Positions 6,240-62,374 of a stretch of 63,974 nucleotides of DNA are shown here, one piece after another (the stretch's first letter is position 1; every line of letters begins with the position of its first letter). The stretch spans positions 1 through 63,974 of IMG/VR virus record IMGVR_UViG_3300036785_000518, one strand, 5' to 3'. A program made the translations under genes and the position numbers. Origin of the DNA: a virus (taxonomy: Duplodnaviria > Caudoviricetes). The notes under the pieces were generated by a model. That model saw nothing but the letters and a program-made list of their open reading frames with translations. It was not told the origin of the DNA and made no database searches.

Positions 6240-6765
6240 TCTAGGTGCTGATCCCGAGGTGAGGCACACACAAGCTGGTGCCATGATCGTCAACATGCGC
6301 ATAGCAACTACCGAAAAATGGAACGATAAAAACAGCGGCGAAAAACGCGAGAGGACCGAGTGGCACCAGATCGTCATCTTCAGCGAAGGTCTTGGCAAGG
6401 TCGTCGAGCGCTACCTGCGCAAAGGGTCCAAGGTCTACGTCGAAGGCAAGCTGCAGACCGAAAAGTGGACCGACAAGAACAACGTCGACCGCTACACCAC
6501 TAAGGTCATAATGGACGGCTATCAGGGCAGGCTGGTGATGCTCGGCGAGGGGAAGGGTGGTGGCCGTGAAGGTGACTACGGTCACGACGATGAGCGGCCG
6601 GCGAAGCAGGTCGATCGTGGCGGCAACGGCGCCGCCAATGGCAACGGCAGCTATGGCGAGCACCGCGGCGGCGGCGGAAGATCGTCACTGCAAGACGAAC
6701 TCAACGACGACATACCCTTTGCTTATCCGCTGCAATTTCAGCGCGTGAGAATCCAAGATGCCTGA
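6205..6765 (+). CDS. ssb: single-stranded DNA-binding protein
   Basis: LNRVCLIGNLGADPEVR, ERTEWH, YLRKGSKVYVEGKL, LNDDIPF. Confidence 0.96.
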   Translation: MSYLNRVCLIGNLGADPEVRHTQAGAMIVNMRIATTEKWNDKNSGEKRERTEWHQIVIFSEGLGKVVERYLRKGSKVYVEGKLQTEKWTDKNNVDRYTTKVIMDGYQGRLVMLGEGKGGGREGDYGHDDERPAKQVDRGGNGAANGNGSYGEHRGGGGRSSLQDELNDDIPFAYPLQFQRVRIQDA

Positions 6766-25660: not shown

Positions 25661-27227
25661 TCTGTCTAACATTGTCCGCTTCCCGCGCGCCTTCTTCAGC
25701 GGGCTGACATCCGACAGCTTCCAAAATTTCCTCGCCGGCTTTGGTGTGCCCGGCCGCGACAAAGCAACAGCTCAAACATGGTGGTTATGCCCGCTCGGCA
25801 CCGACCAGTTGGAGGCCGCGTATCGCGGCGACTGGGCGGCGCGCAAGATCATCGACATTCCCGCTTTCGACATGACGCGCGCGTGGCGCCAGTGGCAGGC
25901 GAGCAAGGAGCAGGTCACGAAGATCGAAGACACCGAGCGGATGTTCAACATCCCCGGCAAGATGATGGACGCCCTGGTGAAGGCGCGCCTCTATGGTGGC
26001 GCCGCGATGATCATGGGCGTCGACTGCGGATCGTTCCAGGATGAGCTGGACCTCGACGCGATCAAGCAGGGCGATCTCAAGTTCGTGCACGTTGTCAGCA
26101 AAAACTTCCTCGCCGCTGGCCCGATGGTGCGCGAGATCACATCGACGTGGTACGGCGAGCCGACTTGGTACATGCGGGCCAACACCGTCACCACCGATCC
26201 GCCCGACCCGCGCATTGCCAATGTCGGTCTGCCGACGCTGGGGCAAGCGCCAGGCGATGCGATCTACATTCATCCATCGCGGGTGATTCGTCTGGTCGGC
26301 GCCGCCTATCCAGACCTTGAGACCGCGCAGGACGCGTGGGGCGACAGCGTGTTGCAGGTGGTGCAGGACGCGCTCAAGTTCGCTGGCATGGCGTCGTCCT
26401 CGATCGCGGCGATGATCGCCGAGGCCAAGCTCGATATCTTCAAGGTGCCGAACCTCACCGCCAAGATGATGACGGCGGAAGGCACGCAAGAGCTGTTCAA
26501 TCGGTTCAGCCAGGGCAACGTCGGCAAGAGCACGATCAATGCGCTGCTGGTCGATCTGGCCGAAGAGTTCGAGCGCATCACGCCGCAGCTATCGAACTAC
26601 GACAAGGTGATCTCGATCTATTACATGCTGGCGTGTGCCGCGGCGGACATCCCGGCGACGCGCTTCATGGGTAAGTCGCCTGACGGCATGAATGCGACCG
26701 GCGAGAGCGACATCAGAAATTACTACGATCGTCTGTCGTCCGATCAAAAAGTTAAATACACGCCGCTACTCACGCGGCTCGACGAGGTGCTGATCAGGAC
26801 GACGTTCGGCTCGCGCGACAAGACCATTCGCTACGATTGGAATCCGCTGTGGCAACTGTCGGCGGTTGAGAAGGCCGACATGAACCTGAAAGCGTCGCAA
26901 GCGCATCAGATCGACGTCAACGCAGGGATCATCTCACCCCACGTATTGCAGACCGGGCGGCAGAATTTCTTGATGGAGGATGGCTTTCTCTATCCTGGAA
27001 TTGAGCAGGCGATCGACGAAGAGGACGAGTGGGACGCCGAAGAGGGCATGCAGCTCGGCATGTCTGGCGGCATGCTCGATCCCAACGATCCCAATGTTAT
27101 CGAGCACAAGGCGTCGACCGGAGCAAAGTACGCGCCGCCACCACCGCAAGAGCCACCAAAAGGGCAGGGGCAGCCTCCGCAAGGGCAGCCGCCGCCACCA
27201 AAAGATAACGGCGGAAATGGCCGTTAG
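25653..27227 (+). CDS. portal protein (DUF1073-like)
   Basis: ARKIIDIPAFDMTRAW, ARLYGGA, IHPSRV, AADIPATRFMGKSPDGMNATGESDIRNYYD. Confidence 0.92.
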   Translation: MVDLSNIVRFPRAFFSGLTSDSFQNFLAGFGVPGRDKATAQTWWLCPLGTDQLEAAYRGDWAARKIIDIPAFDMTRAWRQWQASKEQVTKIEDTERMFNIPGKMMDALVKARLYGGAAMIMGVDCGSFQDELDLDAIKQGDLKFVHVVSKNFLAAGPMVREITSTWYGEPTWYMRANTVTTDPPDPRIANVGLPTLGQAPGDAIYIHPSRVIRLVGAAYPDLETAQDAWGDSVLQVVQDALKFAGMASSSIAAMIAEAKLDIFKVPNLTAKMMTAEGTQELFNRFSQGNVGKSTINALLVDLAEEFERITPQLSNYDKVISIYYMLACAAADIPATRFMGKSPDGMNATGESDIRNYYDRLSSDQKVKYTPLLTRLDEVLIRTTFGSRDKTIRYDWNPLWQLSAVEKADMNLKASQAHQIDVNAGIISPHVLQTGRQNFLMEDGFLYPGIEQAIDEEDEWDAEEGMQLGMSGGMLDPNDPNVIEHKASTGAKYAPPPPQEPPKGQGQPPQGQPPPPKDNGGNGR

Positions 27228-27390: not shown

Positions 27391-27909
27391 ATGACGTATA
27401 CAAAACATCATTATTATATGTACTTTAGAAACATGATAACGAGGTCTATAAGGGACGGACTTCCTTGTAAATACAATAGAGGTGCAGAAATGTTTTATCA
27501 ATTTTTAGAAGATGTAGGACAAATACAAAAAGGCATGGAGACTCCGACAATTGGCAGAAAAGATCACAACAAAGGATATATCTTCGATACAAAGAGTAAT
27601 AGACTGAATTTCGCATGGCAATCAATGATTGATAACAAAAGAGAGTCGGCACTTAGAGCGGCTGCGCTTGGAAAGACACCTTTGCAAACCGCGACTAAAG
27701 AACAGCGTTCAGAACGTGGACGTAAATCAGCTGAACATCACAATCATGTTAATAAGCAAGAGTATACTCGTTATTCGTGTGGACTTACTGGTAAAGGGGC
27801 TAATATGCTTCGCTACCATTTTGATAATTGTAAAAGAAGGTATATTCATATGATTGAATATATGAAGCCTATTGAACATCCTCAGATGATGTTGTCCTTC
27901 GGTAGTTGA
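27391..27909 (+). CDS. AT-rich HNH-type homing endonuclease, possibly degenerate
   Basis: FLEDVG..TIGRKDHNKGY..NFAWQSMIDN; RYHFDNCK tail. Confidence 0.65.
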   Translation: MTYTKHHYYMYFRNMITRSIRDGLPCKYNRGAEMFYQFLEDVGQIQKGMETPTIGRKDHNKGYIFDTKSNRLNFAWQSMIDNKRESALRAAALGKTPLQTATKEQRSERGRKSAEHHNHVNKQEYTRYSCGLTGKGANMLRYHFDNCKRRYIHMIEYMKPIEHPQMMLSFGS

Positions 27910-32728: not shown

Positions 32729-33676
32729 ATGTTTTTCCGCGATATGCCTAACGAACAAGCCGCCCTGAGCTTCTTGGTAAGTCAGATCACTTACATAGAG
32801 CCGGTCGTTTACCGCATAAAATATCCAGATTTGGTTTGGCGGGATTTGATTCCGGTCGACAGCTCTGGAAGCGAGTGGGTTAAATCGATCACGTTCTTCT
32901 CGATCGATCACGTCGGCGCTGCGGATTGGTTCCACGCGCAAGCGCAAGATGTGCCTCTGGCAGATGTCGTTCGCGCGAAGGGCGAGGTCGCCATCGAAAT
33001 GGGTGCCATCGGTTACAGATATAATACCGAGGAATTGGCACAATCGATGATGATACCTAACTTCAGCCTCTCGACCGAGCGAGCAAGTGCTGCTCGTCGT
33101 GCGGCAGAAGAGTTTCTCCACAATTGCTCCATGTATGGCAATACTGCCAAAAACTGGCTCGGCCTTACTAATCATAATCTGCCTGCGGTTATTAACACCG
33201 CACATACTTGGGCGTACGATCTCGCGCAAGCGCCTCCGCTGATTCAAGCGATGCTCAACGACGTCAACCTCGCGCTGACGAACATCTGGCAAGCGTCTCT
33301 CGGCATCGAAATGGCCGACACGCTCCTATTGCCGTTCTCCGCGATGTCGACGATCAACATGGCCCAGCTGCCGAACACCACGATGAACGTGTACGACTGG
33401 CTGCTGAAGAACAACATCTACACGCAGCAAACCGGGCAAGCGCTCACCGTGCGCGCGGTGCGCGGCCTCGATACCGCGGGCACCGCTGGCGGCGGCCGCA
33501 TCATCGCGTACCGGAAGGACCCCGAGATCGTCAAAGTGCACGTGCCGATGCCGCATCGCTTCCTGCCGGTTTGGCAAAGGGGGCCATTGACCTATGATGT
33601 CCCGGGGGTGTTTCGCACAGGAGGCCTGGAGATCAGGCGGCCTGGCGCGATAAGGTATGTAGACGGCGTTTGTTGA
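32729..33676 (+). CDS. major capsid protein (DUF2184-like)
   Basis: FLVSQITYIEP..Y, GYRYNTEEL, GLTNH, HVPMPHRF, TGGLEIRRP. Confidence 0.9.
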   Translation: MFFRDMPNEQAALSFLVSQITYIEPVVYRIKYPDLVWRDLIPVDSSGSEWVKSITFFSIDHVGAADWFHAQAQDVPLADVVRAKGEVAIEMGAIGYRYNTEELAQSMMIPNFSLSTERASAARRAAEEFLHNCSMYGNTAKNWLGLTNHNLPAVINTAHTWAYDLAQAPPLIQAMLNDVNLALTNIWQASLGIEMADTLLLPFSAMSTINMAQLPNTTMNVYDWLLKNNIYTQQTGQALTVRAVRGLDTAGTAGGGRIIAYRKDPEIVKVHVPMPHRFLPVWQRGPLTYDVPGVFRTGGLEIRRPGAIRYVDGVC

Positions 33677-33759: not shown

Positions 33760-34326
33760 ATGAAATGCTGCTCTGTCGATGGTTGCCCAGCAACCTACTA
33801 CGCTAAAGGCCTTTGTCGCGCCCACTATGCGAGGGCGCAGCGCGGCGCCGATTTGTCCAAGCCGTTTCAGGAGCACATCCCTGATCGTGGGTGCTTGGTC
33901 GATGACTGCGATCGTCCGCATGATGCTCACGGCTATTGCAGTCTTCACCGTCAGCGGTGGGAGCGGTTTGGTGATCCGTTACGTGAGAACGTAATTGCCA
34001 GTCCAGGGAATCCTGAAGCGTTCTTTCAGCAAGCCTTGAAGTGTACGTCTGATGAATGTCTGATCTGGCCCTACGGTCGTGATAACAGGGGCTACGCTCA
34101 GATGTCGTGGCGGAAGCGCGGGAAAGCGATCAAAAAAGTGTACTGCGCTGTTTGCGAAGAAGTGCATGGCACTCCACCGACACCAAAGCATGAGGCTGCC
34201 CATTCCTGCGGGAACGGCCACCTTGGCTGCATCAATCCGCGTCACCTTCGTTGGCTGACGCATAAGGAAAATCTGGCTGAGATGCGCGCACATGGCCGCG
34301 GTGCTAACGGCTACGGCCCGTACTGA
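33760..34326 (+). CDS. HNH homing endonuclease
   Basis: CSVDGC..GLCRAHY repeats; EAAHSCGNGHLGCINPRHLRWLTHKEN. Confidence 0.88.
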   Translation: MKCCSVDGCPATYYAKGLCRAHYARAQRGADLSKPFQEHIPDRGCLVDDCDRPHDAHGYCSLHRQRWERFGDPLRENVIASPGNPEAFFQQALKCTSDECLIWPYGRDNRGYAQMSWRKRGKAIKKVYCAVCEEVHGTPPTPKHEAAHSCGNGHLGCINPRHLRWLTHKENLAEMRAHGRGANGYGPY

Positions 34327-39884: not shown

Positions 39885-40670
39885 GTGAGCAACGGCACGA
39901 AACGTTTCTACGTCTACGCCATCATGGTCGACGGCGTGGTCAAGTACATCGGAAAGGGTACTGGGCCACGCGCACGCTTTCACCGTTGGTTCGCCGTAAA
40001 TGTAAACAGGAGGCGAAAACGCGGTGAAAAGGTCAGAACGACAAAGTTCTATAATCGACTGGCGAAGGCGCTGTTAAAGGGGGCAGTAGTTAACTATGAG
40101 ATTCTAGCCTGGTTTGAGACGGACGACGAAGCTTTCGCTGCGGAGATTGCGGAAATCGCATCGCGTCGAGGGCTATGGAATAAGCACGAGGGTGGCTGGG
40201 GGTTCAATTCTGCAAACAGCAAAAGGCTCAGTGCTGACCCAAGGATTAAAGCGATGCGCCGCGAGGTTGGTGGCCGGATAATGAGCGCTCCAGGTCACAT
40301 CGAAAAGATGCAGGCTGGCCGTCTTCGGCCAGAAGCAAAGGAAAAATTCAAGGCGTCGATGGCGCCATTTTGGGGAAGTGAGCGACATCGTCAGATAGCT
40401 GTAGCCAATGGCACCAAGCATATGGCTGATGCTGAAAATCGTAAGGCCGCATCCGAGAGATTAACGAAACTGATGGCTGGCCGCGGTAAAGAAATCATTG
40501 CCGCCTCCAACCGGCGGCGAATGCTTGACCCAGTACAGGCGGAAAGAACGAGAGCTGTCTTAGCCGCAGCGAGAGATCGCAACAACAAAGACCCGAAATT
40601 CCAAGCCAAACAGCGAGCTGGGGTGCAAGCGTACTGGTTGAAGAAACGGGAGGAACGCGGCCATGAGTAA
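39885..40670 (+). CDS. GIY-YIG homing endonuclease
   Basis: FYVY..KYIGKG..R..H, EAFAAE, LWNKHEGG, basic helical tail. Confidence 0.82.
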   Translation: MSNGTKRFYVYAIMVDGVVKYIGKGTGPRARFHRWFAVNVNRRRKRGEKVRTTKFYNRLAKALLKGAVVNYEILAWFETDDEAFAAEIAEIASRRGLWNKHEGGWGFNSANSKRLSADPRIKAMRREVGGRIMSAPGHIEKMQAGRLRPEAKEKFKASMAPFWGSERHRQIAVANGTKHMADAENRKAASERLTKLMAGRGKEIIAASNRRRMLDPVQAERTRAVLAAARDRNNKDPKFQAKQRAGVQAYWLKKREERGHE

Positions 40671-41250
40671 CGGCGATCCGCTCGCTGCGAATCAAGTTAT
40701 CATTAGGTCAGGTGTAGATTTTCCAGTTGTTGATAATAACTTTTTTCGGAGTGTGAACGGAATCTGGCCCGATCTTCTCAGCGGCAAGGCGATCATCTCG
40801 CCTGCCCGCAACGGCATGGATCGCAAGACCGGCAAGCTGCTGCAGGGCTGGGATCATGTCTCGCAAAGCATGGAAGTGATCTTTGCGACGCCGTTCCACG
40901 AGCGGGTGCTGCGGCGCTGGGTCGGCAGTTTCGTTCCAATCCTGCTCGGCGAGACATTCGTCGCGCGCGTGGTGACGAGGTTTTACTGGGCGATTGTCGC
41001 GGCGATCGACTTGTGGGAACCGAATTACCGCATCAAGCAGATTTACTTCATGGGCGATGCACTCACCCAGTGGTCGCCGCTCACTACGACCAGCGCTGCC
41101 GATATGATCCAGCTCGGCGAAGCGATCTTCCGCAACGAGGGTGTCTATCGGCCGCGCGCCCACCTCGGCGACTTCACCCAGTACATGCAGAAGCAGAGTG
41201 GCTTGATCGGGCGTGGCGACCTGCTGTGGGACGTGCAGCCGTTTCCATGA
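40663..41250 (+). CDS. baseplate wedge protein gpW/gp25
   Basis: GMDRKTG..HVSQS..IFATP..RVLRR.VGS..AIDLWEP. Confidence 0.85.
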   Translation: MSNGDPLAANQVIIRSGVDFPVVDNNFFRSVNGIWPDLLSGKAIISPARNGMDRKTGKLLQGWDHVSQSMEVIFATPFHERVLRRWVGSFVPILLGETFVARVVTRFYWAIVAAIDLWEPNYRIKQIYFMGDALTQWSPLTTTSAADMIQLGEAIFRNEGVYRPRAHLGDFTQYMQKQSGLIGRGDLLWDVQPFP

Positions 41251-45540: not shown

Positions 45541-45609
45541 ATAAGACGGGACCGCGTCGTGTTGGAGCACGATGCGGCCCCTAACCGCGATCGAAATAGG
45601 AGTTCGACC

Positions 45610-46239
45610 ATGGCTGACATCAAGAGCTATCAGCGCGCCTACTATCAGCGCAACAAGGAAAAGATTAAGCAGCAGGCCAGGGAGTGGGCGCAAGCCAATC
45701 CCGAAAAGCGCAAGGCCATCGCGCAAAAGCATCAGGCCAAAAAACCTAAGAGCCTGCGCGTCAAGCTGGATGCGGAGACGCTGGCAGCAAATCGGAAAAA
45801 GACGAACAATCTGCGCTATGCGACGCCAGAGGCAAAGGCCAAGACCGCCGATGTGACGAAGCGCTGGGCGCATGAGAATCCCGAGCGTTACGCCGAGATC
45901 AGACATCTTGCGTCGATCAAATTCCGGCTGCGCAAGCGCGGACTGACGATCGAGCAATTCGAGAAGATGCTCGCTGACCAGGGCTACTGCTGTGCGATCT
46001 GCAAAAGCCCGACGACTGGCAACAAGCGCAATGGCCATGGCGCGAAGCCTCGGCTTGAGGTGGGCTGGCCGACAACGGCGCAGCAAGGCGACTTTACGTG
46101 GCATGTCGACCACGATCACAAAACTGGGAAGGTGCGCGGCCTTCTCTGCCACCCATGCAATGCGGCGCTCGGCCTCACTCGCGATGATCCAAGTATCTTG
46201 CGAGCCATGATCGAGTATCTTGAAGCAAAGGATAAGTAG
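45610..46239 (+). CDS. endonuclease VII-like HNH nuclease
   Basis: QGYCCAIC..HVDHDHKTGKVRGLLCHPCNAALG. Confidence 0.9.
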   Translation: MADIKSYQRAYYQRNKEKIKQQAREWAQANPEKRKAIAQKHQAKKPKSLRVKLDAETLAANRKKTNNLRYATPEAKAKTADVTKRWAHENPERYAEIRHLASIKFRLRKRGLTIEQFEKMLADQGYCCAICKSPTTGNKRNGHGAKPRLEVGWPTTAQQGDFTWHVDHDHKTGKVRGLLCHPCNAALGLTRDDPSILRAMIEYLEAKDK

Positions 46240-46240
46240 A

Positions 46241-48697
46241 ATGGCCGAGAACGCAGTAATATACAGAGACAATCAAGAAACGCAGGCAGCAGACTTCAAT
46301 AACCTCCAAGACTATCTCGGCGGCTCGCTTGACCATATCGTCGGTGATGCCATTGAGCCGAAGATGTCTTATTGGGGCTTCACCATTTCGAAGGTGGCGC
46401 CGACGCAGATCAATGTTTCGCCGGGGCGGTTTTACAGTGCAGGGTCGGTTTATGCGCGCAACGAGGTCGTGACGATCGATCTCTTCAATGTGCTGCCGGT
46501 CACGCAGAAGAAGCAGATCGCGGTGGTGTGCTGGGGGTCGACCATCACGCAGGACATTCAGCCGCGCGATTTCATCATTGATGCGGACACCGGGCAATCG
46601 CAGCCGCAGTCGGTGGCGATGACGACGACGCGGTACTGTAACGTCGACGTGGTGCCCGGCGTCGAAGGTCCATCGCCGCAATATCCAGCGACCGACGCCA
46701 CCGATCTAGTCATTGGTTATGTGCTGGTCGATCCCACCGGCATTGTTTCGGTGCAGCAGCTCACTGCCAACGCGATCGACAATCTGCGCGACCTCACCGA
46801 TCGCGTCACCACGATCGAGGTGTTCGACGCCCAGATTGCAGGACAGGTGGCGACGCTAACGACCGCGCTCGCGGCGCTGGCCGATCAGCTGCGCAACTAT
46901 GTGCTGCTGACCGAGTATCAGAAGCTCGTTACCCTGGTGAAGGAAATCTGGGACCTCATTCATCAGCCGGCGGCATACATCTTTTATGGCACCGACAATT
47001 TTCTCGACACCGCGCAGAGCTACACGACCGGCAACGTTGATGGCGCCTACAACGCTCAGATCAACGAGGGGCTGCGTTTCCCCGGGACCAACGCGGCGGC
47101 GACGACCACGCTGCAGCTGCTCAATCCGTCTGATCCGACCGCCACCATTTCCTTGGATGGATTCATGCTGCCGACGCCGTCCGGCGCGCGCGTGCGGCTC
47201 GACTGCTCGTTCAATGCGCTGCCGTGGATCGAAGAGCGCATTCTGCAGTACGTCTTCATCAACTTCACGATCCGCCATCTGCGGCCGGCGCGATATCGTC
47301 ATCGTTGCGGCTACCCGTGGCTGCCGTGCCCGGCGTCGCAGGTCTGGTGGTATCAGGCTCAGCTCGATCCGACGACGCATATTCTTTCATTTGTCGGTGA
47401 AACCTGGGAGATCGTACAGTGGCGCGATATCGCCCAGCACCCCGAGGACACACCTGACTGGCCGCAGCACAGGTTCGATCGACTGCGGTTCTTCTGGCGT
47501 GACCGTGTCGACATCTACTACTGGGCGAAGCTGTTCGATAATTTCGACCATTCCGGCCAACACATCTGCCAGACCTTCCTCAATGGGCAGGACGGTTGGC
47601 TATCGGGCGTCACGGTCTTCATGAACTCGCCCTTGGCGCAGCCTCTTGCGGTTCTGATTGCTGGGACGCAGAGCGATGGTACGCCTGATCATCTGAAGCA
47701 AACGATCCGGCGCGTCACTCTTGATGGACCCGGCGTGCAGGCGTGCTTCGACAATCCGATTCTGATTGGTGACATCGAGTCGATCCGCACCTTTAGGCTT
47801 GGCCTATTTACCACGAGCATTGTAAGAAGCGGTCCGCCGATCTACGTCTATCCGTGCCGCATCAATTTCCCGCCGGTGTTTCTCGAAAGCGGGAAGCGCT
47901 ATGGATTGCATTTCCTCACGACCTACGATCACCGCTTTTGCATCAGCGACCAGTGGGACCTGTTTGCGGTGCACCAGGGTGCCTACTGGGTGAGCGGCAG
48001 CACCGGGCTGTATTTGTGGCCGTCAACGACGAATCCGAAGTCGCTGCGCTTCATGCTGCACTATGCGACCTGGGGCCAGTGGCAGGGCAACACGCAGGCC
48101 GCGGGCGGCGCGGTGCGTGCCGAGGTCCAGATGCAGCCGCTGCAGCTTGCAGGCGGCATCGGTGGCATCGATATTCTCGCCGATGCTGTCGAGCCGCCCG
48201 CCACCGATCTCTCCTACCAGGTTCAGATTGGCGGCAACTGGCAGAAGTTCGACGCCGATCCAAACATGCCAGCGTTTGCAGGCGGCCCGGCGATACTGCC
48301 GTTCAAGATCGTGTTCAGCGGCACCACCGACCTGATGCCGGGCGTGTCGCTGCAGCAATCGCAGGTGACGGTGCACGGCGTGCGCGCCACGCTGTTCCAT
48401 CACATCAGCACCTTCATTCCGGTCGCTTCGGCGATCACCCATATCAAGGTGATCTGCAAGCTCTACTCGTTCGTTACCGCGCACCACACCTGCACCGCGT
48501 CGCTGCACTATTCGACCACTCACAAGTCAGCCGACGTCATCGCCGACATGACGCTCGACGACGGAAGCATCGAGCGCACCTGGACGTTCAACACCGCATC
48601 GATTGCCGACGGCTTTTATGTCGAGATCGACGGCACCACCGACGGCGTCGGCGACAACTACCTCGTCGGCCAGCGCATCGCCTACGCGTCGCCATAA
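46241..48697 (+). CDS. large baseplate or proximal fiber protein
   Basis: position after gpI; QTFLNGQDGWLSGVTVF module. Confidence 0.6.
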   Translation: MAENAVIYRDNQETQAADFNNLQDYLGGSLDHIVGDAIEPKMSYWGFTISKVAPTQINVSPGRFYSAGSVYARNEVVTIDLFNVLPVTQKKQIAVVCWGSTITQDIQPRDFIIDADTGQSQPQSVAMTTTRYCNVDVVPGVEGPSPQYPATDATDLVIGYVLVDPTGIVSVQQLTANAIDNLRDLTDRVTTIEVFDAQIAGQVATLTTALAALADQLRNYVLLTEYQKLVTLVKEIWDLIHQPAAYIFYGTDNFLDTAQSYTTGNVDGAYNAQINEGLRFPGTNAAATTTLQLLNPSDPTATISLDGFMLPTPSGARVRLDCSFNALPWIEERILQYVFINFTIRHLRPARYRHRCGYPWLPCPASQVWWYQAQLDPTTHILSFVGETWEIVQWRDIAQHPEDTPDWPQHRFDRLRFFWRDRVDIYYWAKLFDNFDHSGQHICQTFLNGQDGWLSGVTVFMNSPLAQPLAVLIAGTQSDGTPDHLKQTIRRVTLDGPGVQACFDNPILIGDIESIRTFRLGLFTTSIVRSGPPIYVYPCRINFPPVFLESGKRYGLHFLTTYDHRFCISDQWDLFAVHQGAYWVSGSTGLYLWPSTTNPKSLRFMLHYATWGQWQGNTQAAGGAVRAEVQMQPLQLAGGIGGIDILADAVEPPATDLSYQVQIGGNWQKFDADPNMPAFAGGPAILPFKIVFSGTTDLMPGVSLQQSQVTVHGVRATLFHHISTFIPVASAITHIKVICKLYSFVTAHHTCTASLHYSTTHKSADVIADMTLDDGSIERTWTFNTASIADGFYVEIDGTTDGVGDNYLVGQRIAYASP

Positions 48698-50934: not shown

Positions 50935-51171
50935 ATGTTCACATTCGACCGCAGCAATCTGCGCATCGACGGGGTGCAGAGCGTCGAGATTTCACCGATC
51001 CAGCCGGACACCAGCTCAACGCAATACGTGCGGCTGATCCAAATCTACACCGATCCATCGACGACGACGAACCGGCGCCCGGTGCTGGAGATCGCCGTAT
51101 ATGGCGGAGATCAAACTGTCAACTCAACAGCCGAACTTGAAATACTTATACCGTCGGGTTTGGAATTTTGA
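50935..51171 (+). CDS. hypothetical protein
   Basis: AAGGGGA RBS. Confidence 0.55.
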   Translation: MFTFDRSNLRIDGVQSVEISPIQPDTSSTQYVRLIQIYTDPSTTTNRRPVLEIAVYGGDQTVNSTAELEILIPSGLEF

Positions 51172-51707
51172 CGCGCTGCAACGGTCGCTTTCATTTTGGC
51201 GATGGCTTCTTTGCTGCGTTTTGTGCCCTTCAGGTGATGGCCGTTGATGCGAATGCGTTCGCGCGTTGCTGCACCGACCTTTGCGCGCGCTTGGACTGAC
51301 AATGGTTTTCCTAATCGAGATTGACGGATTACCTCGATCTGTTCTGGCGTTCGCACCTTGCCCTTGTTGCCAAGGCCAGTTTTGCGCTTGTGCTCTTCTG
51401 TCTTCGGCTTGCGCATTTTCTCACGCGTGGCCTCGCAGTGTGTTCGCGTGTACCCGGCAGGACCACCAGCGGTGAGGTTCCAGCCAATGCCAGCGTGCGG
51501 ACGCAGCTCGCGTTCGAGCGCGTAGCATTGGTCCTCTGTGCCCGTGAAAAGAACCTCGGCTTCAAACAACGAAGTGCGGCGCTTCCGATGCCGTCGCACC
51601 CGATCATCGAAACGACAGGTAACACCAACGTAACCATGCTGCCGATGGTCGGTACACGATGTGTCGAAAAGCCAGTAGACAATCCACAACGAAGGAGATA
51701 TACTCAT
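51111..51707 (-). CDS. GIY-YIG homing endonuclease with NUMOD3-like repeats, antisense
   Basis: IVYW..GYVGVT..R...H, GWNLTAGG, HCEATREKM, RSKEAIAKM. Confidence 0.82.
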   Translation of the reverse strand: MSISPSLWIVYWLFDTSCTDHRQHGYVGVTCRFDDRVRRHRKRRTSLFEAEVLFTGTEDQCYALERELRPHAGIGWNLTAGGPAGYTRTHCEATREKMRKPKTEEHKRKTGLGNKGKVRTPEQIEVIRQSRLGKPLSVQARAKVGAATRERIRINGHHLKGTKRSKEAIAKMKATVAARQNSKPDGISISSSAVELTV

Positions 51708-53616
51708 GAGTAATCCCACCTTTGGGTTGCAATTTATTCAGGTCGACGACCAACCGCAACCTATAGTAGGTGCCAACATGGACGTTGTTGGCATCATCGG
51801 CCCGGCCGCTTTGGCCGATCCGAACATCTTTCCGTTCGACACCCCAGTCCTCGTCTTCTCCAACGACACGGTCACCCTCGCGAAGCTCGGCACCGACGGT
51901 TATATTCCGGACGCGATCAATGGAATCAATAACCAACTGGCGGACTTTGAGATCGCAGCTCAGATGGTGATCGTGCGCACCGACTATGGTTCGCAGAGCG
52001 ACGCCAATCTGAAGCTGCAGCAGACCATCGCCAAGATTATGGGCAACTCGACCGCGGGCACCGGCGTGCACGCGTTTCTCAAGGCGCCGAACCTGCTCTA
52101 TTGCACGCCGCGCATTATCGTTGCGCCCGGTTATACCGGCCAGATGGCGAACTCGCTCGACACCCTGGTCGCCAACATCGTCGGCGTCGGCTACATCCCC
52201 GGTCAAACTTATCAGGTGACGTTCACCCCCGGCATCGGCGAGACCAATGGCGCCAACCTCGTGTTGCCGCAGGCGCACGCGGTGGCCGACGTGAACGGCG
52301 AGATCGATGATGCGCAAATCTTTATCGACAGCTGGGGCGCGTGGTTCACGGTAGCGCCGACGGCGACGCTGCCGCCCTATGACGGCACGCCGATGGCGGC
52401 GCAGCAGGCGACCGGCCAGATCGTGTTCTCGGGCCAGCCCGGCGTCGGTTCGAAGATCACGTTCAATTCTCAGGACGTGACCTTCATCGCCAAGGCGACC
52501 ACGGCGGCCGCGTTCCAGGTCAACCTCGGCGACAACCTCGATGCGACGCTCACCAATCTCGTCACCTATCTCACGGGCGTCGCCGCGCAGGCCAACGCCA
52601 ATCTCGGGCTGTGTAATTACCAGAAGACGCTCGGCGATCTACTCGCGCTCAACATCACCTACAAGGCGGCGGGTGTTGCGGGCAATAGCTTCACCCTCAA
52701 CTCGACGGTGACTGGCGCGTCGTGGCCGCCGCATCTTTCCGGCGGTGTCGCCGCTCAGATCGCGGCCAATGGCACCCTCACCGCCACCATGGCGCTCGGC
52801 GCGAACCCGGTATGTGCCGAGCTGACCGGCGTGCTCGACACTCTGATCGCTCACGCCATTGTCGAGAGCGCTGGCAGCTCGACGATCGCCGATGAGAACT
52901 GGCGCGATACTCTCAACAGCCAGCGCCTGATCGGCCTTTCCGGCGGCTGCAAGGTGATCGATCCGGCAAGCGGCAACATCATCGTGATGCCGCTGGCGCC
53001 GCGGGCTGCGGGCGCGATGGTCGCTGAGGACTTCCGCACCGGCTATCCGTTCCACTCGTTCGCCAATCGCGCGGTGCAAGGCATTGTCGGCCCAGCGCGC
53101 ACCATCGCGTTCTCGCTCACCGACGGCGCCACCGAGGGGCAGCTGCTGCTCGCGGCAAACCTCGGGATCATGGTGCGCGGGCTGGTGGGGGTCGAGACCG
53201 CGATCAGCTCGGGCGGCTTCATCCTGATCGCCACCGACAATATGGGCGACGATGAATTATGGAGGATGTACAACGTAAAAAGAGGTAGGGATTACATACA
53301 CTTGTCACTGATGCCTGCGCTGCGGGTTTACCTTGGCAGAACCAACATCGATCGTCAAACCGTCGCCAACATCGAAGAGACGATCGCCAACTTCCTGTCC
53401 CAGCTCACCGCGTTGCAGCAAATCCTGGGCTATCAGGTCAGGTTCCAGGGCAACCTCAACTCAGCCGACGAAATCAGGCTCGGCCATCTCACGGTGAGCT
53501 TCGCTGCCGAAGAGCCGCCGGTCCTGAAGCGTATCACCACCATGAGCGCGCGATACAAGCCGGCCATCGATGCCCTCGTATCCCAACTGGCTGAACAGCT
53601 TACGTTTACTGGCTGA
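51706..53616 (+). CDS. contractile tail sheath protein with inserted domain
   Basis: VVGIIG..FPFDTPV, TPRIIVAPGY, SFANRAVQG, NVKRGRDYI; AAGGAG RBS. Confidence 0.92.
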   Translation: MSNPTFGLQFIQVDDQPQPIVGANMDVVGIIGPAALADPNIFPFDTPVLVFSNDTVTLAKLGTDGYIPDAINGINNQLADFEIAAQMVIVRTDYGSQSDANLKLQQTIAKIMGNSTAGTGVHAFLKAPNLLYCTPRIIVAPGYTGQMANSLDTLVANIVGVGYIPGQTYQVTFTPGIGETNGANLVLPQAHAVADVNGEIDDAQIFIDSWGAWFTVAPTATLPPYDGTPMAAQQATGQIVFSGQPGVGSKITFNSQDVTFIAKATTAAAFQVNLGDNLDATLTNLVTYLTGVAAQANANLGLCNYQKTLGDLLALNITYKAAGVAGNSFTLNSTVTGASWPPHLSGGVAAQIAANGTLTATMALGANPVCAELTGVLDTLIAHAIVESAGSSTIADENWRDTLNSQRLIGLSGGCKVIDPASGNIIVMPLAPRAAGAMVAEDFRTGYPFHSFANRAVQGIVGPARTIAFSLTDGATEGQLLLAANLGIMVRGLVGVETAISSGGFILIATDNMGDDELWRMYNVKRGRDYIHLSLMPALRVYLGRTNIDRQTVANIEETIANFLSQLTALQQILGYQVRFQGNLNSADEIRLGHLTVSFAAEEPPVLKRITTMSARYKPAIDALVSQLAEQLTFTG

Positions 53617-53652
53617 CTTGCACAACGAAGTAAAGAGTGTTGTGCTGGGTTT

Positions 53653-54192
53653 ATGACCCAGCCAAACGATCTCATTGGAATGAAGTTCGGCCTTCTGACG
53701 GTTCTCAAGAGGGCCGGCGCGACCGGCAGCGGCAATGCCAAGTGGCGCTGCCGCTGTGAATGCGGCAAGTCGACTACCGTTATAGGGTCCGCCCTGAAGA
53801 GTGGGAGGACGCGCTCGTGCGGCCACCTCCGTGTCGAAGTCATTGGGCACTTAAAGACCCGCCACGGCGCCAGGATCGATCGCCGCGAGACACCTGAGTA
53901 CCGAGCCTGGACCGAGATTAAGCGGCGTTGCTACAACCCTAAACTGGCGCAGTTTTCTGACTGGGGCGGCCGCGGCATCACTATGTGCGATCGCTGGCGG
54001 TTCGGTGAGAACGGCAAGCATGGCTTCGAATGCTTCCTCGAAGATGTCGGGCCTAAGCCGCATCCTAAGCTCACGATCGAGCGCCTTGATAATGACGGCA
54101 ATTACGAGCCGAACAATGTGGCATGGGTTACGCGCAAACAGCAAGCCAACAATCGAAGACCACGGCGGGGCCGATCACATGCCGCAGCCTGA
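53653..54192 (+). CDS. HNH homing endonuclease
   Basis: DLIGMKFGLLTV, WRCRCECG, GGRGITMCDRW, TIERLDNDGNYEPNNVAW. Confidence 0.9.
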   Translation: MTQPNDLIGMKFGLLTVLKRAGATGSGNAKWRCRCECGKSTTVIGSALKSGRTRSCGHLRVEVIGHLKTRHGARIDRRETPEYRAWTEIKRRCYNPKLAQFSDWGGRGITMCDRWRFGENGKHGFECFLEDVGPKPHPKLTIERLDNDGNYEPNNVAWVTRKQQANNRRPRRGRSHAAA

Positions 54193-54388
54193 GTTCAAGA
54201 CCTTCATCGAGCGCGGCCCGACCCAAGCGCCCGATGACTATCAGCTGTGGGCATGCCGCGGCACCGGCCGCGGCTGCATCGCCAACATGAGATCAAGCAA
54301 TCAGACACCAGCGCCGCGCAAGCATTGCGCTGATTGCTACGGCCCGTTGCCGAAGCCGCTGCACCAGTCGACGACCTTAATCAAGTAG
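54179..54388 (+). CDS. small Cys-containing hypothetical protein
   Basis: fills gap before tube gene. Confidence 0.35.
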   Translation: MPQPEFKTFIERGPTQAPDDYQLWACRGTGRGCIANMRSSNQTPAPRKHCADCYGPLPKPLHQSTTLIK

Positions 54389-54406
54389 CGAAACGGAGTA
54401 CCATCA

Positions 54407-54994
54407 ATGACGGACACGATCCTAACGCTCGACAAGGCTAATATGTTTGCAGGTCGCGAGCCGAGCGACGTAAACCAGGGTTTATACTTGGAATTAACCG
54501 AGTTCAAACTGCCGGCGATGAACGAGCAATATGTCGATCACCGCGCGGGCGGTGTGCCCATCGGTATCGAGGTCGACACGATGTTCGCCAAGATGGAAGC
54601 TACTTTCCAGTTGATCGGCTGGAATCTGCAGGTGGCTACGCTGGTCAATTCGTGGCTCGCCGAGCAAAACGTGTTCTGGATTTACGGATTGCTGCGCGAT
54701 CGCATGACCGCGGAAGCGATGCGGGTCACCGCCAAGTTGCGCGGCCGTCTCGGTCTCGCCGATCCGCAGAACTGGAATCGCGGTGCAGCCCAGCATTGGA
54801 ATTACGCCATCAAGGGCATCATCGCGTATCAGCTCTCGGTCGAGAACTCGCTAATCTATGACTGGGACTTCTTCAGTAATCGGTTCGTTGTTGGGCAGTT
54901 CGATCGTAATGCCGACGTCAATCGCATCCTCAATGTCCCGACGCCGACCGCCTCGCCAGTGGTGCCGCCGCCGCCGGCTGTGGTCACGGCATAA
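54407..54994 (+). CDS. major tail tube protein (P2 FII-like)
   Basis: EFKLP..HRAGG..KMEATF; follows sheath. Confidence 0.85.
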   Translation: MTDTILTLDKANMFAGREPSDVNQGLYLELTEFKLPAMNEQYVDHRAGGVPIGIEVDTMFAKMEATFQLIGWNLQVATLVNSWLAEQNVFWIYGLLRDRMTAEAMRVTAKLRGRLGLADPQNWNRGAAQHWNYAIKGIIAYQLSVENSLIYDWDFFSNRFVVGQFDRNADVNRILNVPTPTASPVVPPPPAVVTA

Positions 54995-55006
54995 CGGGAA
55001 GGGCCC

Positions 55007-55489
55007 ATGTCGATCGACATCATGCGACGCACCGGCGGATGGGTGGTCGAACTGGCCGTGCCGATCAAGCACGGATCGGCGACCATCGACACCATCGAGA
55101 TCAGGCCGCCGACAATCGACACCGTGGTGCGCTGGGGCGAGGGCGGCTTCCCGTCGTCGATGGCGCTGCTCGCCGATCTGTCGGGCGTCCCGGAAAGGGT
55201 GCTGCGCCAGATCAGCTATCCCGATGCCGACCGCGTCATGATGGCGCTCTACAACATCGTGCCGCAGCAGCTCAAGACCGACTTCACCAGCGGCAATGGG
55301 CGACCACTGGCGACGCCCGCCGATGAATTGCCACCCGAGGAGCCGGGCGCCCGCCCGGTCGACCAGACCGACCCGCGCTTTCCCGCCGATCCGATGGTGC
55401 GGCCGACCGTCATTCGGCGGCCCGAGCCGGTCGACGGCCCCGGCATGTCGCTCGACATGCCTGCACCGGCAGCGCGGCAGGTGTCGTAA
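55007..55489 (+). CDS. tail assembly chaperone
   Basis: LAVPI..IEIRPPT..LLADLSGV; between tube and TMP. Confidence 0.7.
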   Translation: MSIDIMRRTGGWVVELAVPIKHGSATIDTIEIRPPTIDTVVRWGEGGFPSSMALLADLSGVPERVLRQISYPDADRVMMALYNIVPQQLKTDFTSGNGRPLATPADELPPEEPGARPVDQTDPRFPADPMVRPTVIRRPEPVDGPGMSLDMPAPAARQVS

Positions 55490-58400
55490 ATGTCGGACGT
55501 TTTCAACGCCAACATCAACATCAACGCGACCGACAACACCAAGAACGCGTACGCGAGCGCCGCCAAGAACGCGAGCGACGCGGCCAAGATGACGATGGAG
55601 GAATGGAAAAAAGCGACGGGCTACGTCGACCAGCACGACAAAGCCGTCGAGAAAGTCTCGAAGCGGTATTCTGGTCAGAACAAGGACCAGCTCGTCGGCG
55701 CTTTCGAGACCGCGAAGGTGGCGGCGCGCGGCTTGAACATCGGCATGATCGACCTCGGCACCACCATGACCGCCACCGTGGTCGGGGCTGCTGCCGTCGC
55801 CTTCAGCGAATTTTCCAAGATGCAGGAAGCGATGACGCGGGTGAAGAATTCGACCCACGCGACGACTGAAGAGATGAAAGAATTCAAGGAGGAAATGGAG
55901 GACATCTCCGAGCACACCGGCGTAAACGTCAAGGTGCTCGCGGCCCAGTTCATCGACTTCAAGCGAACCACTGGTCTTGCGTTAGATGATGCCAAGAAGG
56001 CATTCAAGGCGGTCGCCGAGCAAGCCTTCGTCAGCGGCGGGGACATGAAAGCCACGCTGTCCGCAGTAGGCGTCGCTGTCAATCAGATGAAGGTGCCGAT
56101 CGAAGAGGTGCCAAAGCTGCTCGACCAGTGGCTCACAACGATGGGGCCGGTCAGGGGTGAGTTCGCCGCCTTCATGGCGACCACTGGCGCATCGATGAGT
56201 GAGTTCGGTTTCAAGGGCACCAAGAACGCCAGCGATGTTGCCATCGCGTTCCAGACCATGACGCAGGGCCTCGGCGGCAACGCTGCGGCGGCAGGGCAGG
56301 CCCTGTCGGCGATCTGGAAAGAGATCATCGACAAGAACCAGTTCGGCATGCGGGTGTTCGCCCAGCAGACCAAGGAAGCGGGCGGCACTGTTGGCGACGT
56401 GATTTTGGAGTTGGACAGAAAGATCGGTGAAATCGCTCAAGGCCGCGATCGATCGACCATATCGTGGCTGTTGTTCCCGAAGTCCGAAGAGCTGCGCAAC
56501 GGGCTGACGGCCATTCACGATCAGGCCGAAGCCTACCGCAAAATGCGTGAAGAGGCCGACAAAGCTAAAGGCGCGGTCAAAGAGGGGATGGATGCCCTTG
56601 ATAAAGATGCTGCAGCCGCATTCCGTCGCATATCCGTTGCGATCGACAAGGTCATCGATGCCACCGGCACAATGTTGGAGAAATTTCATCTCAGCGACGA
56701 GCTGAAGCTATTCGCCCGCGACATCAATAATTTTACTGAGAGCGTTGTTTTCAGCTTCCACGCGGTCGAAGGCGCCTGGAGTGACTTCACAAAGGCGGTC
56801 AAAGACGACATCGAAGTAATAAAAAAAGGGTGGGAATATCTCTTTCCTCCGAAGCCGATGGTGCCGTGGGCGGGTCCTGCCGCGCCCTCCGTGCCCGGTG
56901 GCGGCCCTGGTCTCGGTTTCGGCGGGCAGCCGCCTAAAACCAAGACACCGACCCCGGATTGGTTCAAAAAATACCAGCACGGCGGCATGGTCACCGAGCC
57001 GACGCTGGCGATGCTCGGCGAGGCCGGGCCAGAAATGGTCATGCCGATGGGCGCGGGCATGGGCGCGCCAGGCGCCGGCCAGCCGCCGCAGCAGGACATC
57101 GACCGCCCCGATCCAGCAATGGCAGGCCTGTGGCGCGCCATCATGCGCAATAGGGGATACCGGCCGGGGATTGATCCGACCGCCGTGATGGGCGGGTTAC
57201 CCGGTGCTGGCGGTGAAGGTGGATGGGGCGCGGGCGGTGGACGCGGCGGCGGTGGCGGCACTGGCTCCGGCGGCAGCGGCCGCGGCGGCAGCGGCGCTGG
57301 CAGTAGCGGCGGCGGTGACACCGGCGCTGGCGGCAGCGGCACCGATGAACGCGCGACGGACGAATGGCTACGCGGTTCTGAGACCGCCGAGCTGAAGCCG
57401 CTGGGACTCTTGACCGATGCGCTTAAGGCGGGCGGCGGCCAATTGCCGGAAGGTACCATCGGCGGTCCCGGGGGCACTGGCGCAGGTCAGGGCGGCACAG
57501 GTGCTGGCGGCAGCGTTTCTGGCGCAGCTAGGACAGGAGGCGGTGGCGCAATTTACGATAAGCTGCTCGCGGCATTCCAAGGATCGGGCATTGTAGGAAA
57601 GGTGCCTAAAGGCGGGGCTCGGTTTGGGATCACCACCGGGTCGGCAGCAGAATGGGCGCGATTTGGAACGGCCGTGGCATCTGCCGAGTCGAGTTTCAAT
57701 CCCAGAACAAAGAATACGTCCGATCCGGGCGGATCGTTTGGTGTTTTTCAGTACGCGCACGGTCAAGTTCCTGGAGGGAATGCTTATGACGTAGATGCTT
57801 CCGTCAAAGCGTTTGTCAGGGATTCCCTGAGCACTGCTCGCGGCGGCCAATTCAGCGGGAGCATATTGGCCAGGCGGTTTTCCACTATTGGCAGTCACCC
57901 AGAGCGCACAGCTTCGCGCTTGGGTGAAGCAGGGAAGATTGGGGCAGGAACGGGCTTGAGTGCAAGCGGTGGCGGCACCGTGGGCGCGGGCGGCTATACG
58001 CCGTATGCGCCACCGAGTGCGGACAGTGGCGCCACCGCTGGCGGCCCCGGCTCTGGCGGGGCCTTTGAAGGCGTTGGCGCGGCCAACTTCTTCAGCGGAG
58101 GTCGCGCCGGGCAGATGGGCATGGGCATGGGCCACGGTGACAAAAGTCAGATGGTCACCCGCCAAACGGCTCTCGGCCCGATGCAGTTCAACAAGTATGC
58201 CGCCGATGACATGGTCGGCTTCGTCAACGCCCTGCATGCAGCTGGTGTGCCCGGGTTGAAAAGTTACGCCGGGACGCTCAATGATCGCCTCAAACGCGGT
58301 GGCAAAACATGGTCCGAGCACGCTTTCGCCAATGCGATTGACTTCCAGCGCAGTCAAGCTGGCCAAAAGTTCGGCGTCGGCAATCCCGAGATGATGGCAT

Positions 58401-61576: not shown

Positions 61577-62374
61577 ATGGCTGCCGACGACCATCTCACC
61601 ACGACATCCACGAAGCAACAGAAGCAATCTGGTGCCGAGCGGCAACGCGCTTATCGGGCGCGCAAGGCTCGACGAGAGGCGCTTCTAGAAGAGGCAAGGG
61701 ACGATCCAAAGTTTGCTTGGGAATTGGCGGAAGCCGATATGGCACCACCGCCGAGCGCCAAGAAATGCCGCATCTGCGGCGAGGAAAGGCCGCTTGATGA
61801 AGAGCACTTCCACATCAGGGAATCGTCTCGCGATGGCTTCCGCACCGAATGCCGCGAGTGCGTTCGCAAGAGACAGGAAAAGTACAACCGTTCCGAGGGG
61901 CGCAAGCTTGCGCGTTACGAGCGTGAAAGCAAATTACGTCGCACCGATCCTGAGTGGGCCGAGCGGCAACGCATCCATGTGCGTGATTGGGTGGCACGTC
62001 GTCCAGCGGAGCAGCGACGTGAATACGACGCCCAGCCACGTGTAAAACAGCGTAAGGCAAGAGAGCATCGCGCTTGGGTTCAAGCTAATCCCGATAAGCA
62101 TCTTCAAAACTACCATAAGCGGCGCGCTCTAAAGCGCGGCGCTGAAGGCACTTATACGCCGGACGATCTCACCCGGATCATGGATGAGCAAGGTTGCATC
62201 TGCTTCTACTGCGACGAAAGCATTCTGATCGAGTGGACGATCGAACATTTCATCCCGCTATCGCGAGGCGGCACCAACTGGCCCAGCAATATCAGGCTGG
62301 CGTGCAAGGCTTGTAATTCCGCCAAGCACGACAAGCTGCCTAGCGAGTTTGAGCCAAAGGTCCGGCGTTACTAA
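61577..62374 (+). CDS. HNH endonuclease
   Basis: KKCRICGE..DG..ECREC; CFYC..EHFIPLSRGGTN..NIRLACKACNSAK. Confidence 0.9.
   Translation: MAADDHLTTTSTKQQKQSGAERQRAYRARKARREALLEEARDDPKFAWELAEADMAPPPSAKKCRICGEERPLDEEHFHIRESSRDGFRTECRECVRKRQEKYNRSEGRKLARYERESKLRRTDPEWAERQRIHVRDWVARRPAEQRREYDAQPRVKQRKAREHRAWVQANPDKHLQNYHKRRALKRGAEGTYTPDDLTRIMDEQGCICFYCDESILIEWTIEHFIPLSRGGTNWPSNIRLACKACNSAKHDKLPSEFEPKVRRY

Follow-up and report, generated by a model that had tools for sequence, protein, structure and literature searches.

Rare-codon islands in the structural genes of a soil myovirus as candidate resistant target sites of neighbouring free-standing homing endonucleases

Introduction

Why would a tail sheath gene that is otherwise rich in G- and C-ending codons write one of its least variable protein motifs in some of the rarest codons of its genome? 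This question is raised by IMG/VR contig IMGVR_UViG_3300036785_000518 (hereafter the window, by which we mean the whole stretch of 63,974 bp that was analysed; completeness estimate ~70%). It comes from an uncultivated soil myovirus and carries a structural module with many free-standing homing endonuclease genes (HEGs). An original prediction, made from the DNA letters, had pointed to these codons and to similar patches in other core genes, and proposed that target sites had been synonymously recoded as self-immunity footprints of neighbouring nucleases. The elements at the centre of the question are as follows.

51706..53616, + strand: tail sheath gene, 636 aa (phrog_23 tail sheath, E 2.6e-40)
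53236..53355, + strand: rare-codon island in the sheath gene, codons 511-550, with its core at 53251-53310
53653..54192, + strand: free-standing endonuclease-like gene 'HNH53653' between sheath and tube, 179 aa (phrog_374 'HNH endonuclease', E 8.6e-58)

From the analysis below we consider it rather probable, at a little better than an even chance, that this island and the stretches at the start of the gp25 gene, the end of the major capsid protein (MCP) gene and the end of the sheath gene represent, as in the intronless homing of phage T4, alleles of target sites that resist the free-standing homing endonucleases to which they are linked.

Results

A rare-codon island lies on an invariant motif of the sheath gene

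The codons quoted in the original prediction (53251-53307) match the DNA exactly, are in frame with the sheath open reading frame (ORF, 51706-53616) from codon 516, and translate to DELWRMYNVKRGRDYIHLS. A scan for the GC content of third codon positions (GC3) alone missed the patch, and a codon rarity score was therefore used instead. This score, the log ratio of a codon's frequency to that of the commonest synonymous codon, was derived from 18 backbone and structural genes and computed along them over stretches of 20 codons, giving 7972 scoring windows. The sheath stretch 53257-53316 had a z of -3.8 and was the second-lowest non-overlapping window of the 7972 (lowest 0.03%), and the other patches of the original prediction occupied most of the remaining lowest places, so that the patches are statistically distinct by this measure, which supports the original prediction. 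What is odd about the sheath patch is its choice of rare codons, namely TTA, AGG, AGA, ATA, GTA and TCA. The island is also wider than the 53251-53310 first proposed: sheath GC3 is 0.9-1.0 in codons 461-510, dips to 0.5-0.7 throughout codons 511-550, and returns to 0.8-1.0 in codons 551-620 before it falls to 0.5 in the last 16 codons. Since codons 551-620 are of the ordinary kind, the island is internal to the gene and separate from the stretch that abuts the nuclease gene.

The encoded motif was invariant or nearly so in 17 aligned sheath proteins, and the 60 nt from codon 514 formed the second most nucleotide-conserved stretch of the sheath gene among 47 non-recoded relatives; a nucleotide-conserved, invariant motif is the type of site that HEGs are known to use. 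A promoter and terminator scan of 51000-55200 reported nothing in the sheath patch, its sole site being at 51676-51704. Elsewhere in the window, a block of ~770 nt in the tape measure gene (57194-57967) was equally deviant, with several scoring windows at z ~ -3.4. This block is glycine-rich, includes an AESSFNP-like stretch and may be an acquired domain; the called nuclease genes closest to it lie at 54192 and 61577, with none inside 2.6 kb, in a comparison that included no separate scan of its flanks.

Recoding of the sheath motif accompanies the downstream nuclease gene

Scans of viral contigs for sheath relatives (designated here by L and a number) gave 22 loci and then 80 loci kept of 347 confirmed. 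Removal of 9 partial genes left 71, which together with the window yielded 55 distinct sheath sequences. A blastn search of 51706-54994 against a phage GenBank collection returned only 3 short matches (Microcystis phage Mae-JY30, Aurantimonas phage AmM-1), and at 71-75% identity these were of no use for codon comparison. In the four carriers, that is, the genomes with a gene of the 53653-54192 family directly downstream of the sheath gene on the same strand, the patch had a z of -3.3 (window), -2.0 (L083), -2.6 (L112) and -1.6 (L114). All four were among the 8 lowest of the 55 sheath genes, whereas a z of -1.6 or below was found in only 4 of 51 non-carriers (Fisher p = 2.1e-4; Mann-Whitney p = 1.1e-4; 55 distinct genes), which supports the proposed association of the sheath patch with the neighbouring nuclease gene. 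The median patch z of non-carriers was -0.14, about average codon quality. Most relatives use ordinary G/C-ending codons there, and 47 of the 55 distinct relatives have ordinary or better-than-average codons at the same invariant motif.

The recoded sequences fell into two clades, one consisting of the window, L083 and L084 and the other of L112, L113 and L114, plus two weak singletons, and the nearest outgroups of both clades (L085/L086 and L012) had neither the nuclease gene nor the recoding. In an exact-pattern scan the recoded version was matched by just 3 contigs; each belongs to the L112 clade, and one has the family on the other strand. Most of the stretch is present in two soil runs, either of which may be where the window came from. 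Contig sets from four soil runs carried other alleles on 51000-55200 at patch positions 53257, 53263, 53287 and 53292. Variant patch alleles thus co-occur in the same soil runs (as contigs, from which neither frequencies nor linkage are readable), and a second strain with a diverged copy of the nuclease gene was present among the contigs assembled from the same soil run. Joints across 53573-54662 and elsewhere were left aside because their sides are short.

Two nuclease-free relatives, L084 (=L002) and L113 (=L018), carry a longer recoding that extends upstream over sheath codons 486-516, at the motif GVETAISSGGF. GC3 over these codons is 0.45 in L084 and 0.42 in L113, compared with 0.94 in the window, which is unrecoded there. 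As read from the codons, the longer recoding would fit resistance without the gene.

The gap between sheath and tube measures 790 nt in the window, with the gene, versus 0-207 nt in most relatives. The family is sporadic at this place: L083, L112 and L114 have it on the same strand, L117 and L118 on the other strand, and the rest are without it. L083, the closest relative, has two paralogues of the family (~50% identical, at 1270-1800 and 3763-4284), which flank its sheath gene on both sides in opposite orientations. Between the sheath stop codon and the nuclease gene of the window lies a 7-bp hairpin (GCACAAC...GTTGTGC) followed by TGGGTTT (53619-53645), which resembles a weak terminator and went unreported in the promoter and terminator scan of 51000-55200. 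Directly 5' of the tube gene stands a small Cys-rich ORF (54193-54388; DYQLW.C....GRGC ... C.DCYGPLPK), which is kept in L002 (~6250-6450) and whose upstream part in the window overlaps the end of the nuclease gene in a different frame.

Synonymous divergence peaks at the island

Synonymous divergence was measured in 20-codon windows by counting nucleotide differences solely at codons for an identical residue. The original prediction had named synonymous peaks against nuclease-free relatives as a check, and the sheath patch was indeed the top or a near-top peak in 7 of 9 pairwise comparisons. It ranked 2 of 617 between the window and L084 (top window at codon 518), 1 of 573 between the window and L086, 5 of 561 between the window and L085, 1 of 617 between L083 and L084 (Fisher p = 9e-4), and 5 of 617 between L112 and L114 (p = 0.0015). 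The pair L112-L113 showed no synonymous excess at the patch, because both share the same recoding. The siblings L112 and L114, both of which bear the nuclease gene, differed at 12 of 17 comparable patch codons versus ~1/3 elsewhere, suggesting ongoing change rather than one inherited event. This same difference led us to judge unlikely that the patch is a gained binding site for a non-catalytic protein. We also looked for a recent transfer between the window and L112, which could have raised their similarity towards the 3' end of the sheath gene, but nucleotide identity was 0.64 there as elsewhere.

Comparable stretches at the ends of other structural genes

By PHROG and Pfam matches, a myovirus structural module occupies the + strand at 25-61 kb, with genes for portal, protease, cement protein, MCP, gp25-like baseplate wedge, baseplate J, tail proteins, sheath, tube, chaperone and tape measure, and small genes with matches to homing endonuclease families are interspersed among them. 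The genes that matter here are given first, followed by the rare-codon stretches.

32729-33676, + strand: MCP gene
33760..34326, + strand: HNH homing endonuclease gene, 3' of MCP (nine PHROG HNH/endonuclease families, best E 4.5e-17)
39885..40670, + strand: GIY-YIG homing endonuclease gene, 5' of gp25 (phrog_314, E 2.4e-8; YVY...YIG motif)
40663-41250, + strand: gp25-like baseplate wedge gene
45559..46239, + strand: Endonuclease VII-type homing endonuclease gene (Pfam PF02945, E 2.6e-20; PHROG endonuclease VII families)
51111..51707, - strand: GIY-YIG-like homing endonuclease gene, divergent from sheath (phrog_314 'homing endonuclease', E 2.5e-13; IVY...YVG motifs; identified in the present analysis)
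54407-54994, + strand: tube gene
61577-62374: HNH endonuclease gene (PHROG/Pfam)

40684..40761, + strand: rare-codon stretch, gp25 codons 8-33, z -3.6 (40702-40761)
33580..33676, + strand: rare-codon stretch, MCP end, z -2.9 (from 33602)
53566..53613, + strand: rare-codon stretch, last 16 sheath codons, beside the nuclease insertion point, GC3 0.5
54437..54511, + strand: rare-codon stretch, tube codons 11-35, z -2.8
51706..51780, + strand: rare-codon stretch, sheath start, z -3.1 (from 51715)
32770..32890, + strand: rare-codon stretch, MCP start, z -2.5 (at 32774)
46241..46300, + strand: weak rare-codon stretch, orf46241 start, z -2.3 once the start is set to 46241

Nearly all patches had been said to lie next to an endonuclease gene, and this is so for 6 of the 7 listed but not for the MCP start, which has no nuclease neighbour. 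Backbone genes have a GC3 of 0.7-0.86 (~0.77), and nuclease genes are lower, at 0.55-0.70. Within the window, gene ends no more than 300 nt from a nuclease or foreign gene (n=10, counting the unannotated low-GC orf27391 as foreign) had a median z of -2.59 versus -0.70 for the others (n=28; one-sided Mann-Whitney p = 1.8e-5), and this was seen for 5' ends (p = 0.0046) and for 3' ends (p = 0.00026).

Three of these stretches followed the presence of a nuclease gene among close relatives, which supports the original prediction. At the gp25 start, A/T-ending codons run across a conserved motif in the window and in L028, which has a nuclease remnant, versus G/C-ending codons at the same residues in 10 of 11 nuclease-free relatives, the exception being L032, whose whole gene is low in GC3. 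At the MCP end, GC3 of the last 46 codons was 0.43-0.67 in 4 nuclease-bearing genomes versus 0.85 in the nuclease-free L026 (a comparison that covered the downstream side of its MCP, where it has no endonuclease gene). The window and L027 differ there at 19 of 60 nt versus ~7 per 60 nt elsewhere in the gene, and the nuclease genes found after MCP in relatives are only 39-54% identical to that of the window. At the sheath end, the 5 lowest of 55 scores all belonged to genomes with a downstream nuclease gene, and 7 carriers differed from the 48 others (p = 4.2e-5). For the tube start the proposal stood in part: the stretch is recoded in the window and L083 and not in 5 nuclease-free relatives with tube proteins 76-85% identical, so that the link appeared in the window's own clade, but it was not significant over all relatives (p = 0.11).

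The remaining patches gave weaker support or none. The sheath start patch was among the top 5 windows in 17 of 20 relatives, nuclease present or not; it was stronger where an upstream nuclease gene is present (window, L001 and L010), and it overlaps the translation start region of the divergent gene 51111-51707. The start codons of the sheath gene (+) and of this GIY-YIG-like gene (-) overlap at 51705-51708 in the palindrome CATG, and the ribosome-binding region of each gene consequently lies within the first codons of the other. At the MCP start, GC3 of the first 45 codons was 0.60 both in the window, which has no nuclease gene upstream, and in L026, for which the downstream flank of the MCP gene was compared and is free of endonuclease genes. 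The patch at 46241 was weak, GC3 of the first 40 codons being lowered in relatives with and without the nuclease gene. The lowest of all 7972 scoring windows (46220-46279, z -3.9) is partly an annotation artefact, because the true start is the ATG at 46241 and 46220-46240 comprise the tail of the endonuclease ORF and a ribosome-binding site.

The nuclease genes themselves come and go. The GIY gene 39885-40670 is absent in L029, L030 and L031 and reduced to a remnant in L028. A relative of the 33760-34326 gene stands in the gap 3' of MCP in L024/L025 (54% identical) and L027 (39%), with none in L026. Genes related to the Endo VII gene occur in L071-L073 and L078, and none in L074-L077, L079 and L080 (absent in 6 of 10 relatives). 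Nuclease genes thus stand between conserved genes and are patchily present among close relatives, as in intronless homing. Identity of the window to three ~92% identical contigs dips beside the GIY and Endo VII genes, including the gp25 start and 46230-46410; these dips, and the synonymous peaks at the sheath patch and gene ends, are flank divergence of the kind associated with homing. The remnant in L028 (1151-1327) consists of 39 codons from the start and 21 from the end of the GIY-YIG gene, on either side of an internal deletion, and its gp25 start is still recoded; it fits a homing endonuclease gene decaying after fixation.

The protein encoded at 53653-54192

Support for a catalytic domain differs among the nuclease genes: it comes from Pfam for 45559-46239, from motifs and PHROG for both GIY-YIG-like genes, and from the PHROG name only for 53653-54192. 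The product of 33760-34326 matched Pfam HNH_3 with a score under the family cut-off. In the protein of 53653-54192, alignment of 9 family members revealed R144-x10-N155-x11-N167 with the Arg invariant. An AlphaFold model had a mean pLDDT of 74, and an exhaustive structural alignment placed PacI (PDB 3m7k) first, matching model residues 75-171 with Z 5.8 and rmsd 3.0 over 76 residues at 17% identity. Nuclease activity of this protein is plausible.

Discussion

A reading as resistant target-site alleles

If the reading that we favour is right, the product of an HEG would act on related phages without that HEG, recognising a long, nucleotide-conserved stretch of a neighbouring essential gene and cutting or nicking it. 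Repair off the HEG-bearing genome would then copy the HEG and its flanks into the cut genome. Carriers of the HEG, or genomes repeatedly attacked by it, would survive only with their own site no longer recognised. With the protein motif fixed, only synonymous changes offer a way of escape, and because genome GC3 is near 0.8, the escape codons are necessarily rare and mostly A/T-ending, which explains why the islands are so conspicuous. The island 53236-53355 would be the resistant allele of the site targeted by the family encoded at 53653-54192, ~300-400 nt away, and the gp25-start, MCP-end and sheath-end islands would likewise be resistant alleles with respect to their neighbouring nucleases, mixed with co-copied donor flank. 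We infer from sequence comparison all three of the premises on which this depends, namely that the nucleases are active and site-specific, that the unrecoded allele is their target and that the recoding blocks cleavage.

The published systems to which we compare these loci are cited from excerpts of the respective papers. Free-standing endonucleases of T4 cut conserved genes hundreds to thousands of bp from their own gene (PMC2988022), and at the site nicked by MobE the nrdB genes of T2 and T4 are not identical in nucleotide sequence (PMC2790892). T4 intronless homing (Seg, Mob; MobE on nrdB) resembles the present loci in that a nuclease gene lies between conserved genes and is variably present in close relatives, in that the presumed target is in a neighbouring essential gene hundreds of bp off and differs in the carrier, and in raised flank divergence. 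Unlike in T4, the proteins here are known from sequence alone, and the sheath-side family is uncharacterised and has Arg where HNH enzymes have His; the site differences take the form of a conspicuous rare-codon island in a GC-rich genome, and recoding has affected one and the same motif in two clades, and in genomes lacking the nuclease as well. Nuclease genes have also been described as marking the boundaries of genetic exchange in the vicinity of essential and structural genes of phages (Barth, Dunham and Seed 2023, PMC10448857). That system likewise has several HEG families by capsid, baseplate, sheath and tube genes, with identity shifts at borders; in contrast to our approach, the excerpted paper appears not to use codon rarity as a target-site mark ('synonymous' has 0 and 'codon' 1 occurrences). 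F-CphI is a free-standing homing endonuclease with an Endo VII catalytic motif (PMC6083498), and the gene 45559-46239, with its C-terminal Endonuclease_7 domain, is likewise free-standing beside a conserved gene, a likeness drawn by description only. PacI, a rare-cutting beta-beta-alpha-metal restriction endonuclease, resembles the sheath-side protein as the top structural match of its C-terminal domain.

Several observations weigh against the reading as resistant alleles. The GC3 of the sheath patch, ~0.5, is not low enough for the 0.40 cut of the GC3-only sliding window, so that of the sliding-window check foreseen in the original prediction the codon-rarity part singled out the patch, whereas by GC3 alone it was unremarkable. 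Four nuclease-free genomes have a recoded sheath patch, and although carriers are recoded as the idea of a self-immunity footprint would have it, the recoding is therefore not strictly 'self'-immunity. L117, with the family on the other strand, has an unrecoded patch (z -0.7), and since the recoded set consists of two clades, the association rests on about two independent events. The window-L083 pair had only a weak synonymous excess (Fisher p = 0.14). The recoded region, at 60-120 nt, exceeds the usual length of a single recognition site. Switches within six-fold codon families, which we considered as a mark of selection, were dropped because they are present all along the gene among diverged sequences. 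As for the enzyme, the 53653-54192 protein had no match in Pfam (E up to 5), NCBIfam or PDB sequences. By spacing, R144 presumably occupies the position of the first histidine of an H-N-H/N motif; no HNH profile aligned to the protein, and the motif assignment is our own reading. Foldseek of the model against PDB returned nothing at E <= 0.001, and the PacI fold match appears weak, a Z of 5.8 being within the range of chance arrangements.

Alternative explanations

A fairly unlikely alternative is that the stretches merely hitch-hiked: lower-GC donor DNA would have been co-converted with the nuclease gene, in which case no selection is needed and the cut site need not lie inside the stretch. 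Flank co-conversion is established for T4 (PMC2988022), the GC3 of the nuclease genes is like that of the adjacent patches and under that of the backbone, the gp25-start, MCP-end and sheath-end patches abut nuclease genes, and identity dips flank these genes. For the internal sheath island this explanation is at its weakest, as ~70 GC3-rich normal codons separate the island from the nuclease gene, the 3' part of the sheath gene is no more similar between the window and L112 than the rest, L112 and L114 are more divergent within the patch than over the backbone, and the longer recodings of L084 and L113 occur in nuclease-free genomes. The patches might instead embed expression signals, such as A/T-rich promoters, ribosome-binding regions or structure-free leaders for nuclease genes within the ends of their neighbours, which we regard as improbable. 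This would be strongest for the sheath start, where the shared CATG means that the ribosome-binding region of 51111-51707 must sit in sheath codons 2-7, and the MCP-end and sheath-end patches do lie directly 5' of nuclease start codons. However, the gp25 and tube patches are downstream of nuclease genes, and the internal patch is ~300-400 nt upstream of the nuclease start with no promoter-like site found there, is retained in L113 and L084 without the gene, and differs strongly between L112 and L114, unlike a conserved signal.

Escape from a host defence that reads DNA (CRISPR spacers or restriction), independent of phage nucleases, would also select synonymous change in a conserved motif, given a sequence-specific host nuclease, and would accommodate the four nuclease-free recoded genomes. 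We nevertheless consider it very unlikely, since the recoding is found in all 4 carriers of the phage nuclease family, covers 20-40 codons and not just a protospacer-adjacent motif or seed, and has counterparts beside other nuclease genes. When 185,579 species, with one genome apiece, were scanned for exact copies of the unrecoded 23-mer, there were 0 matches, which is weak evidence, as a spacer must contain the whole pattern to be found. As a general account, a translational feature, with a cluster of rare codons that delays ribosomes to aid folding or that reduces mRNA structure near the start of a gene, seems most improbable of all: at the internal motif the great majority of distinct relatives have ordinary or better codons, non-carriers are of average codon quality, and the rare codons of the patch are not conserved across relatives. 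A translational role is, on the other hand, the best explanation of the MCP start and sheath start patches, and of some of the other start patches in part, the former of the two being the same in nuclease-free L026 and the latter recurring in the top 5 windows of 17 of 20 sheath genes.

Novelty and implications

The mechanism of resistant target-site alleles is already known from T4, and the gain here is thus in scope and method and not in concept. What is new is the particular loci and families of nuclease, the finding that one sheath motif has been recoded in two clades as well as in genomes without the nuclease, and the reliance on codon rarity to indicate cut sites; judged by titles and abstract openings, we found no paper describing rare-codon clusters as nuclease-immunity footprints. 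If the reading is true, it provides precise and cheap target-site predictions for at least 5 uncharacterised phage nucleases, and the sheath-side family would have its target somewhere in sheath codons 486-550. It would also mean that in natural soil populations resistance to a competitor's homing endonuclease arises by synonymous recoding, even in nuclease-free phages, and would bear on the part that selfish nucleases play in recombination and competition between related phages. GC-rich phages could be searched, with sequence as the sole input, for codon-rarity islands on invariant motifs beside sporadic nuclease genes. More tentatively, and with a probability we put somewhat below even, rare-codon islands may be a general, computable footprint of an arms race between HEGs and their targets in GC-rich phages. 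They would then map the cut sites of uncharacterised families, including 'HNH-like' ones with Arg for His, longer resistance recodings would be found in nuclease-free phages, and selfish nucleases would act as weapons between co-infecting phages and leave a visible mark on synonymous sites in the genes for sheath, capsid, baseplate and tube.

Other features of the window

A protein-pattern scan of genome contigs hit 2 metagenome-assembled genomes, one of Verrucomicrobiae and one of Hyphomicrobiales, on which we base no host claim. The HNH domain of 61577-62374 had Cas9d, IscB and Cas9 as its top NCBIfam models (E 1e-10 to 3e-5), far under the cut-offs, a likeness at the domain level only. The ORF 1402-4098 is helicase-like (ResIII/DEAD domains, residues 9-162) and contains a low-GC3 insert at 2299-3468, which had no Pfam intein match at E <= 0.001; it begins with CLDQETEILT, ends with VVGN before T and has two LAGLIDADG-like motifs, and from these marks it looks like an intein with a homing endonuclease. 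Finally, an ORF of 172 aa lies between the portal gene and the next structural gene (27391-27909; GC 0.37, GC3 0.31) and matched no entry of PHROGs, Pfam or NCBIfam. A rare-codon patch (27147-27206, z -2.9) is present in the adjacent end of the portal gene too, and the ORF is probably foreign DNA and perhaps another mobile gene.

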